Position numbers and translations under genes: made by a program
Notes under the pieces: generated by a model
The model's input: the letters and a program-made list of their open reading frames with translations, nothing else
Told to the model about the DNA's origin: nothing
Databases searched by the model: none
In this document: positions 20,594 through 57,452 of the stretch, one piece after another
Layout of the letters: each line of letters starts with the position of its first letter
How positions within the stretch are numbered: position 1 is the stretch's first letter
Virus record (IMG/VR): IMGVR_UViG_3300024430_000001
Coordinates: 1 to 58,452 of that record
From: a virus
Lineage: Duplodnaviria; Caudoviricetes
Reading direction: 5' to 3' (one strand)
DNA: 58,452 nt

Positions 20594-20625
20594 GCGCCCG
20601 TCCTCTTCGGAGGGCGGGCGCTTCT
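20594..20625. terminator. Hairpin terminator
   Basis: GCGCCCGTCCTC-TTCG-GAGGGCGGGCGC-TTCT. Confidence 0.75.
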
Positions 20626-20810
20626 GCGCGTTCCGGTGTTGTCACCTTAGCGATGTCACCCGGAGGTGAGAGAATTTCTTGGGCATGAAAACGGCCCGGT
20701 CGGCTGCCTGCCTACCCAGCGGCGGCCGTCCCGGACCGATGCCTTGGCTGACGAGCAGATTTAGGTGGCCTCGCCAGCTTCACCCCTCTACCGAAGGGAA
20801 CCCCACAACT

Positions 20811-21611
20811 ATGCACCAACTGAACCTTGTGGCCAACACTCTCGATCAACTTCGTTGTGAAGATGAGACCGGAGAGTGGTGGCTAGCCCGCTCCCTGATG
20901 CCCGTCATGGGCTACGTCAAGTGGGAGAACTTCGAGGAAGTGATCACGCGCGCCCGTGCGGCGGCGCGTAACTCCGGCCTCGACCCTGATCAGCATGCTT
21001 CCCGGCTCCAGGAAGTTGGGACGAAGTGGACACCGGGCGCAGGTGGTCGGGTTGACTACCGGCTCACCCGCTACGGCGCCTATCTGCTGGCAATGAACGG
21101 CGACCCGCGTAAGCCGGAGATCGCTGGGGCGCAGACCTACTTCGCGGTCAAGACCCGCGAGGCGGAGGCCGCGGCCCTGATCCCGTCTCCACGGCGGCCC
21201 CTCACCAACCGCGAGCTGGCCCTGATGGTCATCGAGGAAGCTGACCGGGCCGACCGGGCGGAGGCCGCGCTGGGGATCACCCAGCCGAAGGCGGAGGCAT
21301 ACGACGTCTTCCTCGACGCGGACGGCACCTACTCCTTTGAGCAGGTCGCCAAGATGCTGCATGCCGAGACCGGGCTGGGGCGCAACAATTTGATGAAGCG
21401 GCTGCGGGAACTCGGCGTGCTCGAGAAGAACAACGTCCCCTATCAGCGTCACCTCGAGCACTTCCACGTCGTCGCCCAGCACTTCGAGGGCGCAGACGGG
21501 CGACGCCGCGTCACCCACACCACCCGGGTCTATCCGTCCGGAGTGGACTTCATTCGACGCAAGGTGCTCGCCGGGCGCGGCATGCTGACCCCGGCTCTTA
21601 TGTCCCCCTAG
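20811..21611 (+). CDS. Antirepressor (DinD/Bro-like N-terminus plus KilA-C domain)
   Basis: WWLARSLMPVMGYVKWENF, LTRYGAYLLAMNGDPRKPEIA.AQTYFA, PKAEAYDVF, GRNNL..LR, PYQRH motifs. Confidence 0.9.
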   Translation: MHQLNLVANTLDQLRCEDETGEWWLARSLMPVMGYVKWENFEEVITRARAAARNSGLDPDQHASRLQEVGTKWTPGAGGRVDYRLTRYGAYLLAMNGDPRKPEIAGAQTYFAVKTREAEAAALIPSPRRPLTNRELALMVIEEADRADRAEAALGITQPKAEAYDVFLDADGTYSFEQVAKMLHAETGLGRNNLMKRLRELGVLEKNNVPYQRHLEHFHVVAQHFEGADGRRRVTHTTRVYPSGVDFIRRKVLAGRGMLTPALMSP

Positions 21612-21625
21612 GGCTCGGTCACCCT

Positions 21626-21657
21626 GCGCCCGCCCTCCGAAGAGGGCGGGCGCTTCT
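21626..21657. terminator. Hairpin terminator
   Basis: GCGCCCGCCCTC-CGAA-GAGGGCGGGCGC-TTCT. Confidence 0.75.
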
Positions 21658-21668
21658 GCTATTGCCCC

Positions 21669-21697
21669 TTGCGCTAATAAACGGCGTCGTTTATTCT
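21669..21697 (+). promoter_or_regulatory. Promoter with overlapping palindromic operator
   Basis: TTGCGC-N17-TATTCT, with AATAAACG-gcgt-CGTTTATT (21676-21695) covering the spacer and -10. Confidence 0.75.
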
Positions 21698-21744
21698 GGG
21701 TGTACGGCCGCAGGGAGTGGCCCGGACCCGAAGGAGCAGCCGCA

Positions 21745-22047
21745 ATGCCGATCACGACCACCATCTTTGGCCAGGACACCCGCCACGCCGAGCCGAGGCC
21801 CGAGATGAGGCCCGAGATCTCAGCCGAGTTTTACGCCGCGCTCGCCGCTGCCGGAGTCACGGCGGACGCAGAGATTGAGCCCGACGGCCAAATCACCATC
21901 GAGACCAACTGCACCCAGATATGCGTAGGTGCAGAGGACGGCTGGATCACCGCCACCGCACGGTACGCCGACGACACTGAGGCGATGATCTACGAGGGTG
22001 AGTCGCTGACCGACCTGGCGGCGGCGATCGCCCGGACGCTGCGGTGA
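21745..22047 (+). CDS. Small acidic hypothetical protein (candidate anti-defence effector)
   Basis: AAGGAG RBS, 100 aa, Asp/Glu-rich; first gene after the operator-bearing promoter. Confidence 0.7.
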   Translation: MPITTTIFGQDTRHAEPRPEMRPEISAEFYAALAAAGVTADAEIEPDGQITIETNCTQICVGAEDGWITATARYADDTEAMIYEGESLTDLAAAIARTLR

Positions 22048-22277
22048 GCCAGGCCGCACGCCGACCCGGCCGTCCGGGCCTGGGCGACCGGGTCGCAGTC
22101 CGCCTGGACCCCGAAGTCCGCGCCGGTCTCGCCCGGTGGGCTGAGGGCCGGCCGGACGTCGACCGCAGGCGCGGGCGACCGGTCGAGGCTGACGCCGTCC
22201 GGGTAATCGTCGAGGAGCGGCTGGCGGCTGAGGGCATCCTCCGGCCGGGGGACGCTACGAGCGCGTCGGAGTGCTAA
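22044..22277 (+). CDS. Ribbon-helix-helix DNA-binding protein
   Basis: GRPGLGDRVAVRLDP beta-ribbon followed by two helices; GTGA overlap with the upstream gene. Confidence 0.7.
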   Translation: MSQAARRPGRPGLGDRVAVRLDPEVRAGLARWAEGRPDVDRRRGRPVEADAVRVIVEERLAAEGILRPGDATSASEC

Positions 22278-22294
22278 CCTGGGACAGTTCGTTG

Positions 22295-22443
22295 TTCATT
22301 GAGGTTTGGTTGCGGGTGGCGCCCAGCGTCCCGGTAATCCCGTCGCGGGACTAACTGTCCCGCCCTTCATTGAGGAGTGGTCGTCTTCGACGTGCCAGCC
22401 TGAGCACGATGCTGCGGGGCTCGCCCCCGCCCTTCGCTGATAG
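22295..22443 (+). CRISPR. CRISPR-like mini-array 1 (type I-G-like repeats, 2 spacers)
   Basis: Partial repeat TTCATTGAGG (22295-22304); 37-nt spacer; full repeat GTC-GCGGGAC-TAACT-GTCCCGC-CCTTCATTGAGG (22342-22375); 35-nt spacer; degenerate repeat GCT-GCGGGG-CTCGC-CCCCGC-CCTTCGCTGATAG (22411-22443). Confidence 0.72.
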
Positions 22444-22479
22444 AAGCGCCCGCTTTCCCGTAGGAGAGCGGGCGCTTCT
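22442..22479. terminator. Bidirectional terminator
   Basis: AGAAGCGCCCGCTTTCC-CGTA-GGAGAGCGGGCGCTTCT between convergent transcription units. Confidence 0.8.
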
Positions 22480-22505
22480 GCTCATTGCGAGATGGGGGTT
22501 GCGGT

Positions 22506-22811
22506 CTAGCCTCGCTGCCGGATGCCGCGCTCGGCCAGCAGGTGGCGGTTGCGGACGCCAGTCTTGGACATGCCGAGGCGGGCGGCGATCTGGCGGTAGG
22601 ACCAGCCGAGGCCGCGCAATCGCAGGATCTCCGTATCGGGGATGTCGACGCGTCCCCGTGGCCCGCGTCGACGGGTGGGCACTTTGCCGTGGATGGCTTT
22701 CCAGAGGGTCTTGCTGTGGCGGATGCCGAGTTCGTCGATGATCTCGCGCAGGGTGCGGCCCTTGCGGTAGAGCCGCACCGCTTGTGTGGTCTGTCGGGCT
22801 GTGAGCGGCAT
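22506..22811 (-). CDS. Double helix-turn-helix protein
   Basis: GRTLREIIDELGI and GWSYRQIAARLGMSKTGVRN HTH motifs. Confidence 0.75.
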   Translation of the reverse strand: MPLTARQTTQAVRLYRKGRTLREIIDELGIRHSKTLWKAIHGKVPTRRRGPRGRVDIPDTEILRLRGLGWSYRQIAARLGMSKTGVRNRHLLAERGIRQRG

Positions 22812-22837
22812 GCATCGATGCTATGCCGCAATGAGGA

Positions 22838-23149
22838 TCAGGCGCGGCAGGGCTCGCGGTATTTGTTGAGGTCGGACCCTTTGAGGACGACGATGGTGTC
22901 GATCTCGGTGCAGTCGTCGTCGCCCTCGGCGTAGTCCCGCGCGATAGCCTGCGCGGCCGCGCGCTCGTCGAGGTAGCCGCCTCCGGCGAAGTTGGCCGAC
23001 TGGTACTGGGTGCTGTCCCAGCGGTCCGGGTCGTAGCTGTCGTTGATCGACCAGTTGCACGACACGCCGACCTCGGGTCGGGTGGGGTCGAAGGCCATCA
23101 GGAATGCCTGGTCGTCGGTGAGGGTGACGCGGTAGATGTTGCGGCTCAT
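22838..23149 (-). CDS. Small acidic hypothetical protein
   Basis: AGGAG RBS, 103 aa, Asp-rich; divergent from the RHH gene at 23242. Confidence 0.72.
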   Translation of the reverse strand: MSRNIYRVTLTDDQAFLMAFDPTRPEVGVSCNWSINDSYDPDRWDSTQYQSANFAGGGYLDERAAAQAIARDYAEGDDDCTEIDTIVVLKGSDLNKYREPCRA

Positions 23150-23183
23150 GGCTTCTCCTGGGTGAGGGGTGGCGCTTCAACGG

Positions 23184-23239
23184 AATAAATGTACCACACT
23201 TAAAGACGACTTGGCAAGAATAGGTGTGGTACATTTATT
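23184..23239. promoter_or_regulatory. 16-bp perfect inverted-repeat operator in a divergent promoter region
   Basis: AATAAATGTACCACAC (23184-23199) N24 GTGTGGTACATTTATT (23224-23239). Confidence 0.8.
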
Positions 23240-23241
23240 GC

Positions 23242-23460
23242 GTGAGCGAGGAGAAGAAGCGCAGAGGAAGACCCGCCACCGGCGTGACCCCCAAGCGCAA
23301 CCTGCGAGTCGGCCCGGTCTGGGATGAGGCAGCCGCGATCGCCGAGGCGCGCGGCGAAACCATCACCGACGTGGCCCGGCCCATCCTGGAACGCGGCTTG
23401 CGCCGCTACATCCGGCAGCACGGGCAGGAGGGGGTTGGCGACCAATCGGCGACGGGGTAG
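23242..23460 (+). CDS. Ribbon-helix-helix DNA-binding protein
   Basis: RGRPATGVTPKRNLRV..VWDEA...GETITDV...L.RYI motif; probably leaderless GTG start. Confidence 0.8.
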   Translation: MSEEKKRRGRPATGVTPKRNLRVGPVWDEAAAIAEARGETITDVARPILERGLRRYIRQHGQEGVGDQSATG

Positions 23461-23461
23461 T

Positions 23462-23557
23462 GTGACGGCACTGGTTCGCCAGTCCTCATTGCGATCTGAT
23501 CGCACCGCACGTCCGTGAGACGGGTGGTTCCCGGCCGAGGCCGGGCCTCTTTGCGAT
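23462..23557 (+). CRISPR. CRISPR-like mini-array 2 (two divergent hairpin repeats, one short spacer)
   Basis: GTGACGGC-ACTGG-TTCG-CCAGT-CCTCATTGCGAT (23462-23495); 28-nt spacer; GTGGTT-CCCGGC-CGAG-GCCGGG-CCTCTTTGCGAT (23524-23557); both units 34 nt. Confidence 0.62.
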
Positions 23558-23559
23558 TT

Positions 23560-23598
23560 GCGCCCCACCCGGCACGTAGCCGGGTGGGGCGCTCTTTC
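23560..23598 (+). terminator. Hairpin terminator after mini-array 2
   Basis: GCGCCCCACCCGGC-ACGTA-GCCGGGTGGGGCGC-TCTTTC. Confidence 0.8.
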
Positions 23599-23835
23599 GT
23601 ATCCGGTCCTGGTCTGCCAGGCTCGCCGGTATGCCGTCTCCATCCGATCCGCGTCCCGCTGATCCTGTCGCACCTCCCGCCGAGGCGGTGTGCTGTGGCC
23701 GGGGGTCGTGGGCGCCGAAAGCCGGGGCTCCGCTGGTGGTGGGATGCCAGCTGTGCAAGCTCTCGCCGACGTACTGGCGCAAACAGTCCGCCCCCGCCGC
23801 CTCGGAGTGAGGCAGGCGGGGGCGGTTCTGTCGTG

Positions 23836-24120
23836 TCAGTCGGCGGCGGCGCGCTCGACCGTGGCGTACATACCGGTGTCGCCGAACTCCCAGTCTTCAG
23901 TGCGCGACCAGCCCTGCTCAGACAGGATTCGGTCTGCCGCTTCGCCAGCCGCTTCGGTGCCGTCCCGTCCAGGCACGCCGGTGTCGGCGTCGCCCATCGC
24001 CATCTCGCCCGTCATGTCCTGCCCTGTGCCGGACAGGTCGTCGGCCATCTCGTAGACGCCGACTTCGTAGGTCGCATCGGGGGCGATCTCGGTCAATATG
24101 GCTGCCTGGTGCATTTTCAT
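23836..24120 (-). CDS. Very acidic small hypothetical protein
   Basis: GAGGA RBS, 94 aa, Asp/Glu-rich; flanked by hairpins. Confidence 0.7.
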   Translation of the reverse strand: MKMHQAAILTEIAPDATYEVGVYEMADDLSGTGQDMTGEMAMGDADTGVPGRDGTEAAGEAADRILSEQGWSRTEDWEFGDTGMYATVERAAAD

Positions 24121-29495: not shown

Positions 29496-29510
29496 CCCCC
29501 CTCAATGACT

Positions 29511-29540
29511 AAAGCCCCCGCCGAGTGCGGGGGCTTTTTT
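29511..29540. terminator. Intrinsic terminator
   Basis: AAAGCCCCCGC-CGAGT-GCGGGGGC-TTTTTT. Confidence 0.88.
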
Positions 29541-30209: not shown

Positions 30210-30271
30210 AGCGGAACACTCCACCACTGTTCCGCTGGAACACTTTGTGTACCGGACACTGCGGGTACCCT
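30210..30271. promoter_or_regulatory. GntR operator/promoter region
   Basis: AGCGGAACA...TGTTCCGCT inverted repeat plus a further GGAACA; TACCCT -10 before leaderless ATG 30278. Confidence 0.55.
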
Positions 30272-35294: not shown

Positions 35295-35792
35295 GGATGA
35301 GCAGGCCCACGCCTCCGCCCAAGCCAACGCCCCCTTCGCGGCCCACCCCGGCAAGCAAGCCGCCCTCTGGTCCGCCACCCACGGGCCGCCCTAGCGCGCC
35401 CCCGAGACTCCACCAACTGACCGCAGCGATCGTCGCCATCGCGATCTTTATCCCATTGATCACCTGAGTTTGCCGGGCGGGCGTGTGAGGTCTGCTCCGC
35501 GCCTGTCCGCTGCACGGCCTGTCGTCGTCCTCATCGATCCACGGCGGCAGGCGCAAGACCCCGGTCCCGTCCGGTGAGGGGGTGGCGGGCGGGACCGGCG
35601 AAAGGCTCCGGCATCAGCCGGGGGACGTCGTGACGCAGACACCTGCGAAGACGACGTGGCGCGTGGGGCGCCGAGGGCCAGCCGGCCAACTGGGGCGGCC
35701 GGCTGGCCATCCCAGACCTGAATAGCCGCAAAGAAAACGGCCCGGCTGCGATCCGGGCCGATTGGATCAACGGAAGGAACAAGGGACTCCCG

Positions 35793-57028: not shown

Positions 57029-57256
57029 ATGTACGACCTGGACGCCCGAATCACCCCCGCCCAAGCCGCCCGCCTGCTCGACCTCTCCCGGCAGCTGATC
57101 AAAGACTGGTACGACCGTGGCCGCCTGAAGCGTGGCGAAGACGGCCTAGTCCGATTGGGCGACGTGCTTAAGATCGAAGCTGAGACCCGCAACAACCGCC
57201 GCCGCGGCACCTTCGGACGTGGCGGCACCAGAAACTTACAGCTCGTAGCGGTGTAG
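57029..57256 (+). CDS. HTH DNA-binding protein
   Basis: ITPAQAARLLDLSRQLIKDWYDRGRL. Confidence 0.75.
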   Translation: MYDLDARITPAQAARLLDLSRQLIKDWYDRGRLKRGEDGLVRLGDVLKIEAETRNNRRRGTFGRGGTRNLQLVAV

Positions 57257-57321
57257 AGGAGCGGGTCGTCCTCGCGGGCCTCATAAGTCCGAGATCGCCG
57301 GTTCGAATCCGGCCACCGCAA
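57247..57321 (+). tRNA. tRNA with CAT anticodon (Met/fMet-like)
   Basis: Cloverleaf AGCGGTG/CACCGCA, D stem GAGG/CCTC, anticodon arm CGGGC-CTCATAA-GTCCG, T arm GCCGG-TTCGAAT-CCGGC; no encoded CCA. Confidence 0.85.
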
Positions 57322-57452
57322 CTCAAAGCCGGAAGCCTCCAGCTGAAGGCCGTGAGGCTTCCGGGTCTTGTACTGCGGCAGCCCACACCGCAGGGGAGGT
57401 TCGCCGATCCCGGTCGGGCAATGACGCAAGCTTACCGTTGGCAGGAGCAGCC

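Follow-up and report, generated by a model that had tools for sequence, protein, structure and literature searches.

What might a short array that resembles part of a type I-G CRISPR locus be doing in a phage genome? The question is raised by positions 22295 to 22443, plus strand, of IMG/VR virus record IMGVR_UViG_3300024430_000001, one whole record of 58,452 bases that was analyzed over its full length (here called the window). The carrier is a soil actinophage, and Csb2 was not found in the window, so the array must rely on host proteins. With moderate confidence, we favor the interpretation that this is a two-guide, CRISPR RNA (crRNA)-like array of type I-G, i.e., a "Cracr array," that would redirect the type I-G Cascade of the host to repress its own operon; the array probably serves to shut off host immunity. 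To our knowledge, type I-G is the least studied of the type I systems, and the literature searched yielded no inhibitor of it that is based on RNA.

The element consists of one complete repeat with a partial unit on each side, 37 to 40 nucleotides (nt) away, and guide-like segments between them. Its parts are as follows.

22295-22305, plus strand: psiR1, a repeat tail only (TTCATTGAGG followed by T); exact 10-mer, with a model match at 22291-22305 (13.5 bits).
22306-22341, plus strand: psiS1, or guide 1, 36 nt, with homology to host guides.
22342-22376, plus strand: complete type I-G repeat, 35 nt, matched by a covariance model at positions 1 to 36 of 36.
22377-22410, plus strand: psiS2, or guide 2, 34 nt, with a seed in common with host crl guides.
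22411-22443, plus strand: psiR3, a degenerate terminal unit (repeat family D13).
22442-22479: long GC hairpin of 17 to 18 bp (I7; arms 22442-22458 and 22463-22479, 94%).

The original prediction, made from the sequence alone, had described this element as three repeat units, the first of them partial, with two spacers. As it stated, TTCATTGAGG recurs exactly at an interval of 71 nt; 22295-22304 and 22366-22375 are the only two occurrences in the window. The middle unit reads GTC, stem (22345-22351), loop (22352-22356), stem (22357-22363), and CC-TTCATTGAGG-A, and its stem, GCGGGAC/GTCCCGC, is the perfect 7-bp helix that had been claimed, as folding confirmed. The last unit, psiR3, keeps the predicted stem and CCTTC, with a 6-bp GCGGGG/CCCCGC helix (22414-22419 and 22425-22430) around a loop at 22420-22424 and then CC-TTC up to 22435, and it has CCCGCCCTTC in common with the middle unit (D13: 15 nt, 87%, spacing 67). 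Beyond CC-TTC (22431-22435), psiR3 diverges, showing GCTGATAG where ATTGAGGN is expected. Thus, three repeats can be read only in part: the middle unit is complete, but the first is a tail of 10 to 11 nt, upstream of which 4 of 24 positions agree with the middle unit by manual count, and the third departs from the pattern after CCTTC. Similarly, the spacers quoted as 37 and 35 nt become 36 nt (22306-22341) and 34 nt (22377-22410) when placed in the frame of the 36-nt host repeats. The resulting geometry, which we consider established, has unit spacings of 71 and 67 to 69 nt, and host arrays have a period of 71 to 73 nt.

In the Thioalkalivibrio type I-G system, the available text of Shangguan et al. 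2022 (PMC9638904) describes a Csb2 that cuts a few nucleotides after the stem, so that the crRNA retains an 8-nt 5' handle, and that stays on the 3' hairpin. Read in that light, psiR1 holds a presumed 8-nt 5' handle, ATTGAGGT (22298-22305); the middle repeat would serve guide 1 as its 3' hairpin and guide 2 as its 5' handle (ATTGAGGA, 22369-22376); and the conservation of psiR3 appears to end at the putative Csb2 cut site that leaves such a handle. The conserved parts would then be exactly those needed for two mature RNAs and nothing else. With one complete repeat, no Csb2, and an antirepressor gene, small open reading frames (ORFs), and a helix-turn-helix (HTH) gene nearby, the feature is not classed as a canonical CRISPR array or locus. 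Nor is it a solitary repeat unit, given the partial units 37 to 40 nt away; the SRUFinder rule, as worded in the accessible part of PMC10651486, calls a full match plus a partial match within 100 bp a mini-array only if they are at least 90% identical, and our assignment was made by spacing.

The type to which the repeat belongs was determined by comparison with bacterial arrays. A search of one genome per species for TTCATTGAGG-N50-75-TTCATTGAGG matched at least 120 stretches; among the stretches listed, many were long arrays, with up to 46 matches per locus, from Actinoplanes, Micromonospora, Nocardia, Rothia, Actinomyces, Bifidobacterium, Corynebacterium, and others. These host repeats are 36 nt long and read GT(C/T)GC, 8-bp stem, 4-nt loop, stem, and C(C/T)TTCATTGAGG(C). 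Their hairpin is supported by covariation: seven of eight pairs had changed on both sides, and 88.9% of cells were paired versus 55.8% in shuffles, none of 500 of which reached the observed value. Because one array (L068) adjoins Cas4g/Cas1g (NF049935, 3.8e-113, cut by the end of the locus) together with Cas2, and because Csb2 (TIGR02165) scored above its cutoff in all five array-bearing genomes tested, the repeat family is of type I-G. The repeat form that the original prediction had given for actinobacterial I-G systems, ~36 nt with a GC hairpin and a CTTCATTGAGG(C) end, was accordingly seen in arrays accompanied by Cas4g/Cas1g or Csb2.

From 48 distinct repeats we dropped 4 (L046, L071, and L113, with non-CRISPR periods, and L138, a contig from a viral collection) and aligned the other 44 distinct actinobacterial 36-nt repeats into a covariance model, R1; the window was then scanned with it in full, without filters. 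R1 matched 22342-22376 over its full length with 33.3 bits and an E value of 3.6e-7, a value that is partly circular because the training set was gathered with the phage's own TTCATTGAGG; ~20 of the 33.3 bits are independent of the tail and come from the 5' GTCGC and the correctly placed, perfect hairpin. The second match was the bare tail at 22291-22305 (13.5 bits; E = 0.12), in the tail columns only. Judged by sequence and structure, the middle unit (22342-22376) is a type I-G repeat of the actinobacterial GTNGC-hairpin-CYTTCATTGAGGN class, as had been predicted, and the first and third units are best described as repeat remnants rather than as type I-G repeats.

The guides provided a second line of evidence. 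Ungapped and in register, guide 1 agrees at 24 of 36 positions with a guide in the cas locus of actinobacterial genome G003, at 22 of 36 with each of the guides of G216 and G137, and at 21 of 36 with that of G203, including 9 of the first 12 (position 6 differs, and the run is hence noncontiguous); over 33 nt, the agreements with host guides were 23, 21, and 21. Among 859 GC-rich array spacers used as a null (mean, 9.4; standard deviation, 2.6; maximum, 18), none reached the values of guide 1, and two host guides, those of G003 and G005, have just 20 of 36 positions in common. This homology is established, and from these sequences guide 1 clearly shares ancestry with the host guides. Guide 2 agrees with guide 1 at 10 of 34 positions, which is background. 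Its first 12 positions match the G005 guide at 9 (a value reached by 2 of the 859 controls) and the G407 guide at 9, and 12 of 17 positions match the G003 guide. Guides 1 and 2 would thus form one seed family with the host guides that regulate cas genes, the membership of guide 2 being weaker; as variants of one family, they suggest tuning to promoter variants among hosts. The text of the preprint on Cracr arrays (10.1101/2024.10.29.618823) asks for at least 9 bp in common; guide 1 shares the PAM (protospacer-adjacent motif)-proximal part with host guides (9 of 12 in G203), and repeat-like units flank spacer-like segments in a virus, outside a CRISPR-Cas locus.

Shared ancestry and the degeneracy of two of the three units would also suit a decaying fragment, i.e., a captured piece of a host I-G regulatory mini-array or of the end of an array. 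We find this quite unlikely. Comparison of positions 20600 to 24000 with 75 host cas loci (381 kb) showed no homology at E ≤ 0.01 and therefore no host flanks, which argues that the array is not freshly captured host DNA; moreover, the degeneration is patterned, with the handle, the full repeat, the hairpin, and CCTTC all kept, and the middle repeat is better than the psiR2 units of hosts.

The host guides proved to have a characteristic location. BLAST of the array against five I-G genomes pointed, in both G003 and G005, to one cas-locus site that resembled the repeat tail together with the initial bases of a guide. At this site, ...GGGGTGCCC-TTCATTGAGG-C stands alone, antisense, in the gap that precedes csb1; the tail lacks a preceding hairpin and leads into a guide-like segment of 36 nt and, after that, a degenerate unit. 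The 411-amino-acid gene is Cas7g (csb1; TIGR02570; 49.3 bits versus a cutoff of 38). We collected csb1 upstream regions from 18 of 401 genomes of the family, 9 of 10 further array-bearing genomes, and 7 of the 275 genomes from the genus to which G005 belongs. In the 32 regions examined, 12 standalone antisense repeat-tail elements were seen, and these host regulatory mini-arrays keep only ...CCCTTCATTGAGGC, without a hairpin, like psiR1 of the phage. Seven of the 12 have a partial match to their own guide 26 to 101 nt before the csb1 start, as listed below.

G203: seed 10/12, PAM TAC.
G216: seed 9/12, PAM TAC.
G137: seed 11/12, PAM TAC.
G306: seed 11/12, PAM TAC.
G005: seed 11/12, PAM TAC.
G407: seed 10/12, PAM TAC.
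G433: seed 9/12, PAM TAT.

The seed mismatches fall mostly at position 6 or 12, and TAC makes up 0.0064 of the trinucleotides in one pooled set of csb1 upstream regions. A TTN PAM, which the original prediction had proposed, finds no counterpart here, since six guide-target pairs carry TAC and one carries TAT; both TAT and TAC are reported in the accessible text of PMC9335239 as PAMs that work in vivo in a Bifidobacterium I-G system. The circuit of a host crl element and a TAC- or TAT-flanked target is thereby established. Our analysis indicates that the antisense element upstream of cas7g in Micromonosporaceae is likely a CreR-type self-repression circuit of type I-G. According to the portions available of earlier surveys, "creA-like elements" had been noted by hand for I-U among other subtypes (10.1101/2023.03.10.532045), and mini-arrays were present in 4% of 235 I-G loci (Shmakov et al., PMC10120712, Table 1). 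The loci with elements include L190/L210 (G003), L188/L211 (G203), L217 (G216), L220 (G137), L224 (G306), L229 (G407), L241 (G433), and L242 (G005). In another genome, G194 (L227), a full I-G array lies directly upstream of csb1, antisense; its repeat starts with GTCGCGG, like that of the phage, and ends with TTCATCGAGGC. A promoter scan before csb1 of G203, of a kind unsuited to actinobacteria, called nothing, and the host crl element had no match among GenBank phages.

Guide 1 of the phage also fits one of these targets. It matches the csb1-promoter target of G203, TAC|TTGGTTGCGTGT, 26 nt before csb1, at 11 of 12 positions, the first 9 exactly, and G203's own guide matches the same target less well (10/12). 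On sequence, guide 1 may thus face a cas promoter next to a TAC PAM in this genome, a stand-in host, and no such target was seen for guide 2. The original prediction had named both competing phages and host promoters as possible targets; host promoters are favored, because guide 1 is homologous to guides that regulate cas genes in hosts and matches a csb1-promoter target, whereas competing phages gained no support.

The latter point comes from searches for protospacers, which the original prediction had proposed. Against 50,697 GenBank phage records, guides 1 and 2 matched 12 and 7 records, with best E values of 0.5 and 0.4 and none covering 80% of the guide, and the whole array was unmatched. 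Within the window the guides matched nothing beyond chance, in agreement with the prediction that it holds no full protospacer. In the reverse direction, 1,404 host-array spacers matched the phage at chance level only (best exact run, 17 nt; best ungapped match, 27/36) and thus give no sign of an earlier encounter between the phage and any I-G host sampled. Several candidate matches were rejected. A site for guide 2 at position 686 of the window is flanked by TAC and agrees at 10 of the first 12 positions, yet at 14 of 34 overall, which is not beyond chance. On the G003 contig that carries the cas genes, guide 1 has a 19-nt exact match, which falls within a coding frame ~7 kb away from the operon and was attributed to chance. 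Of 401 genomes compared with the array by BLAST, 66 gave E ≤ 0.01, and the five inspected were coding-region look-alikes. The motif TTCATTGAGG-N-TTGGTYGCG had one match in IMG/VR and seven in metagenomes, all in unrelated DNA of lower G+C content.

These searches bear on the possibility that this is a classical inter-virus mini-array, whose spacers would turn the I-G interference of the host on rival phages or plasmids. The segments of 36 and 34 nt do have the lengths of real I-G spacers, mini-arrays are known in viruses (PMC11656645, in its accessible part), and none of the collections searched contained a relative of this phage, so that its targets could be unsampled. We nevertheless regard this function as very unlikely, because the phage records yielded chance-level matches only and because both guides fall into the seed family of the host guides that regulate cas genes, which would be a strange coincidence for spacers acquired from phages.

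Returning to the interpretation that the array turns host Cascade on its own operon, we can propose how it might work. Plus-strand transcription at the end of the rightward gene block would yield an RNA built of handle, guide 1, full repeat, guide 2, hairpin, and then a strong terminator. Host Csb2 would bind both hairpins and cut ~5 nt after each stem, giving RNAs of ~71 and ~67 nt with 8-nt ATTGAGGN handles. Loaded into I-G Cascade, the guides would pair through ~11 to 12 seed-proximal nucleotides with the TAC-flanked site upstream of cas7g, and with pairing only partial, Cascade would bind without cutting and repress its effector operon. The array RNAs would, in addition, draw Cas proteins away from defensive crRNAs. 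That the array is transcribed, that Csb2 processes it, that it represses the operon, and what host it has are points that we infer from this analysis. Since the handle of guide 1 has no preceding hairpin, I-G Cascade would have to load an RNA whose 5' end forms without Csb2. A more specific proposal, that this is the first I-G phage crRNA-like anti-CRISPR array, a minimal RNA that descended from a host cas7g-promoter regulator, carries guides tuned to promoter variants, which would let it disarm a broader set of I-G hosts, and has the 5' end of guide 1 made without Csb2, seems to us evenly balanced between being right and being wrong.

Competition for Cas proteins could also be the whole story. 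The element might act as an RNA decoy only, as Racrs do, with a repeat that, together with its neighbors, soaks up Csb2 and Cas7g in dead complexes and "guides" that carry no targeting information. One complete I-G repeat in a phage without detected Csb2 is what a decoy would look like, Racrs are described in the accessible text of PMC10651486 as repeat mimics in viral genomes, and such competition is, according to the available text of 10.1101/2024.10.29.618823, part of the Cracr effect. A decoy, however, needs neither the homology of guide 1 to host guides over its whole length (0 of 859 controls) nor its match to a TAC-flanked promoter site, and the flanking units lie at the CRISPR period; we consider a pure decoy unlikely.

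Several observations weigh against a Cracr-type function. The recurrence of TTCATTGAGG is not significant by itself (three matches with at most one mismatch versus 1.45 expected; 15 of 100 shuffles reach three), and a 13-mer with up to three mismatches is not enriched (9 matches versus 12.08 expected). The tail columns of R1 were fixed by the motif used for collecting its training set, and R1 did not detect psiR3 at E ≤ 10. The phage stem is matched by none of 79 distinct host repeats seen; the exact middle unit was absent from IMG/VR and, with its loop left free, from metagenome contigs. A cognate host whose Csb2 recognizes the unit is thus hypothetical. There is no canonical hairpin upstream of psiR1 to account for the formation of the 5' end of guide 1. 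The target match of guide 1 is ~11 to 12 nt long and lies in the stand-in host G203, and guide 2 has no PAM-flanked target with a good seed in any host locus examined; among the 12 host elements, 5 (G003, G167, G566, G556, and G406) lack an identifiable target. The array also lies between converging genes, a place in which GC hairpins would in any case be expected to act as terminators, and TCATTG(A/C)G ends other terminator-like phage hairpins at several sites. Against these points stand three features that are above chance: the full-length R1 match, the 71-nt period like that of host arrays, and the homology that links guide 1 with the regulatory guides of hosts.

Because TCATTG(A/C)G follows other terminator-like hairpins, a plain terminator reading had to be excluded. 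This would hold that the region contains only tandem terminators, placed between the end of a plus-strand gene at 22277 and that of the minus-strand HTH gene at 22506, and that its likeness to CRISPR arose by chance. The region is indeed strongly structured (z scores for the fold versus shuffles of -5.48 on the plus strand and -4.55 on the minus strand), and both the shared motif after other hairpins and the nonsignificant recurrence of the 10-mer would fit. A chance resemblance is nevertheless extremely improbable in view of the full-length R1 match (E = 3.6e-7), which includes the 5' GTCGC and the placement of the hairpin, the period of host arrays, and the homology of guide 1. The array hairpins may also terminate transcription, since the two roles are compatible.

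The array can be compared with several known systems; for each system, we refer to what the accessible text of the source describes. Cracr RNAs copy the seeds of host CreR/CreA, load into host Cas effectors, and tighten the repression of cas promoters (Liu et al., 10.1101/2024.10.29.618823). In 30 Cracr arrays, two or three guides are directed at variants of a single subtype, and one I-E array restored the infectivity of T7 (10.1101/2024.10.29.618823). The subtypes listed there are V-A, I-F, I-E, I-C, and I-B, with neither "I-G" nor "I-U" in the main text (10.1101/2024.10.29.618823); both terms are also absent from the text of the Racr paper (Camara-Wilpert et al. 2023, PMC10651486). Like Cracr arrays, the phage element is a degenerate, phage-borne mini-CRISPR outside a cas locus, its guides copy the PAM-proximal part of host guides and would be aimed at a cas promoter, two guides would serve for variants of one subtype, and the last repeat-like unit is imperfect. 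Unlike Cracr arrays, it is of type I-G, its guides are full length (36 and 34 nt) and not shortened, its first unit lacks a hairpin, and it is known here from sequence.

Host CreR/CreA (10.1101/2023.03.10.532045; PMC10120712) resembles the I-G elements in its position in the cas gap, its degenerate repeats, and its partial, PAM-flanked match on the effector side, whereas the phage copy is in a virus and has two guides and one intact repeat. With Racr (PMC10651486), the array has in common that it is a viral mimic of a host CRISPR repeat, comes without cas genes, and probably competes for Cas6-type proteins and Cas7; it differs from that single repeat with no meaningful guide in having guide-like segments at the CRISPR period with homology to host guides. 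Inter-virus mini-arrays (PMC11656645) likewise have one or two spacers and host-type repeats in a virus that uses host Cas proteins, but their spacers match related viruses, and those of the phage match none found and resemble host cas-promoter guides. Finally, canonical I-G crRNA (PMC9638904) shares the 36-nt repeat class, a hairpin of 7 to 8 bp, and a unit of ~72 nt; the middle unit of the phage differs in its length of 35 nt, its 7-bp stem and 5-nt loop, a presumed cut 5 rather than 4 nt past the stem, and a stem sequence unlike any host repeat seen.

The genomic setting is that of an actinophage. The window encodes endolysin, holin, and antirepressor genes, its terminase is at most 55.4% identical to those of Streptomyces, Gordonia, and Arthrobacter phages, and the terminase and lysis genes together point to actinophage gene content. 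Searches of GenBank phages for near and distant relatives found none, and IMG/VR, searched with two array-flanking proteins, returned remote HTH matches only. By a filter on G+C content at third codon positions, plus-strand genes extend to 22277, minus-strand genes run from 22506 to ~30070, and plus-strand genes resume at 30245. The mini-array is placed in the convergent gap 22278-22505, because the gene blocks converge there. The features next to it are the following.

22044-22277, plus strand: ORF of 77 amino acids, the last plus-strand ORF before the gap; no known family.
22275-22280, plus strand: TAACCT, the putative -10 element of the original prediction; its TAA (22275-22277) is the stop codon of ORF 22044-22277.
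22506-22811, minus strand: HTH gene, on the other side of the gap from the array.

TAACCT had been proposed as a start for transcription of the array. A simple promoter scan around the array, unsuited to actinobacteria, called nothing at this site. Since no terminator lies between ORF 22044-22277 and the array, read-through from the upstream plus-strand genes would be an equally good source of a transcript. The hairpin at 22442-22479 is, from its sequence, likely a bidirectional terminator that closes both the array transcript and the convergent HTH gene. Another hairpin (21626-21665), after the antirepressor gene, has GCGGGCGCTTCTGCT in common with the big hairpin (22442-22482), and by this resemblance the two are repeated terminator modules. 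Soil-metagenome runs contain the array stretch, and 21881-22285 and 22360-22803 are covered without differences by contigs of one RNA-library run. All of the runs consist of contigs, at low depth, and the gap over psiR1 and guide 1 is uninformative, as DNA runs are equally fragmented; the runs speak neither for nor against transcription.

Directly upstream of the array and on its strand lie two small ORFs of no known family (21700-22047 and 22044-22277). They are anti-CRISPR candidates because Cracr elements often adjoin anti-CRISPR genes, according to the abstract of the preprint (10.1101/2024.10.29.618823). The HTH protein (22506-22811) scored 26.7 bits against the HTH of Cbp1, a CRISPR repeat-binding protein, far below the cutoff of 140, and it also matches sigma-70 region 4 and HTH_23; it could be an Aca-like regulator, a candidate without real support. 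An Rfam scan of the window found nothing but one tRNA, outside the array; a tRNA-Met gene is located at 57247-57322, close to the right end of the record.

Comparable elements were seen on two other IMG/VR contigs, at 1072-1380 of L132 and 6220-6535 of L139. Both have the layout of a partial tail (18.2 bits), ~34 nt, a full I-G-type repeat (30.1 bits), and a degenerate unit, so mimics of I-G repeats recur in independent actinobacterial viruses. Directly downstream of each are two near-identical hairpin units of ~29 nt (...CCCCGCAnnTGCGGGG...), ~61 nt apart, which presumably resemble type I-E repeats; L132 and L139 may thus carry a multitype viral mini-array cluster. Within the window itself, two hairpins at 23462-23557, followed by CCTCATTGCGAT or CCTCTTTGCGAT and situated after a small plus-strand ORF, were not matched by R1 at E ≤ 10 and could be terminators or else imitate repeats of a different class. 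Strong GC hairpins at 29499-29536 (minus strand; R1 score, 9.8 bits; E = 1.3) and ~35700-35740 (minus strand), have UUUAGUCAUUGAGGG or GUUUUCUUUGCG after them and look like ordinary intrinsic terminators with tails that resemble the repeat tail.

Short stretches of homology between guides and the regulatory mini-arrays of hosts make it possible to tell "regulatory" mini-arrays in viral genomes from "interference" ones. If our interpretation is correct, the array would offer a compact, naturally occurring layout of two guides for repressing genes of actinomycetes by means of type I-G, and it would extend the recently described viral strategy of crRNA-like anti-CRISPR RNAs to type I-G and to actinophages. 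It would also point to a conserved circuit in Micromonosporaceae by which the I-G effector represses itself, with a TAC or TAT PAM and mismatches mostly at position 6 or 12.

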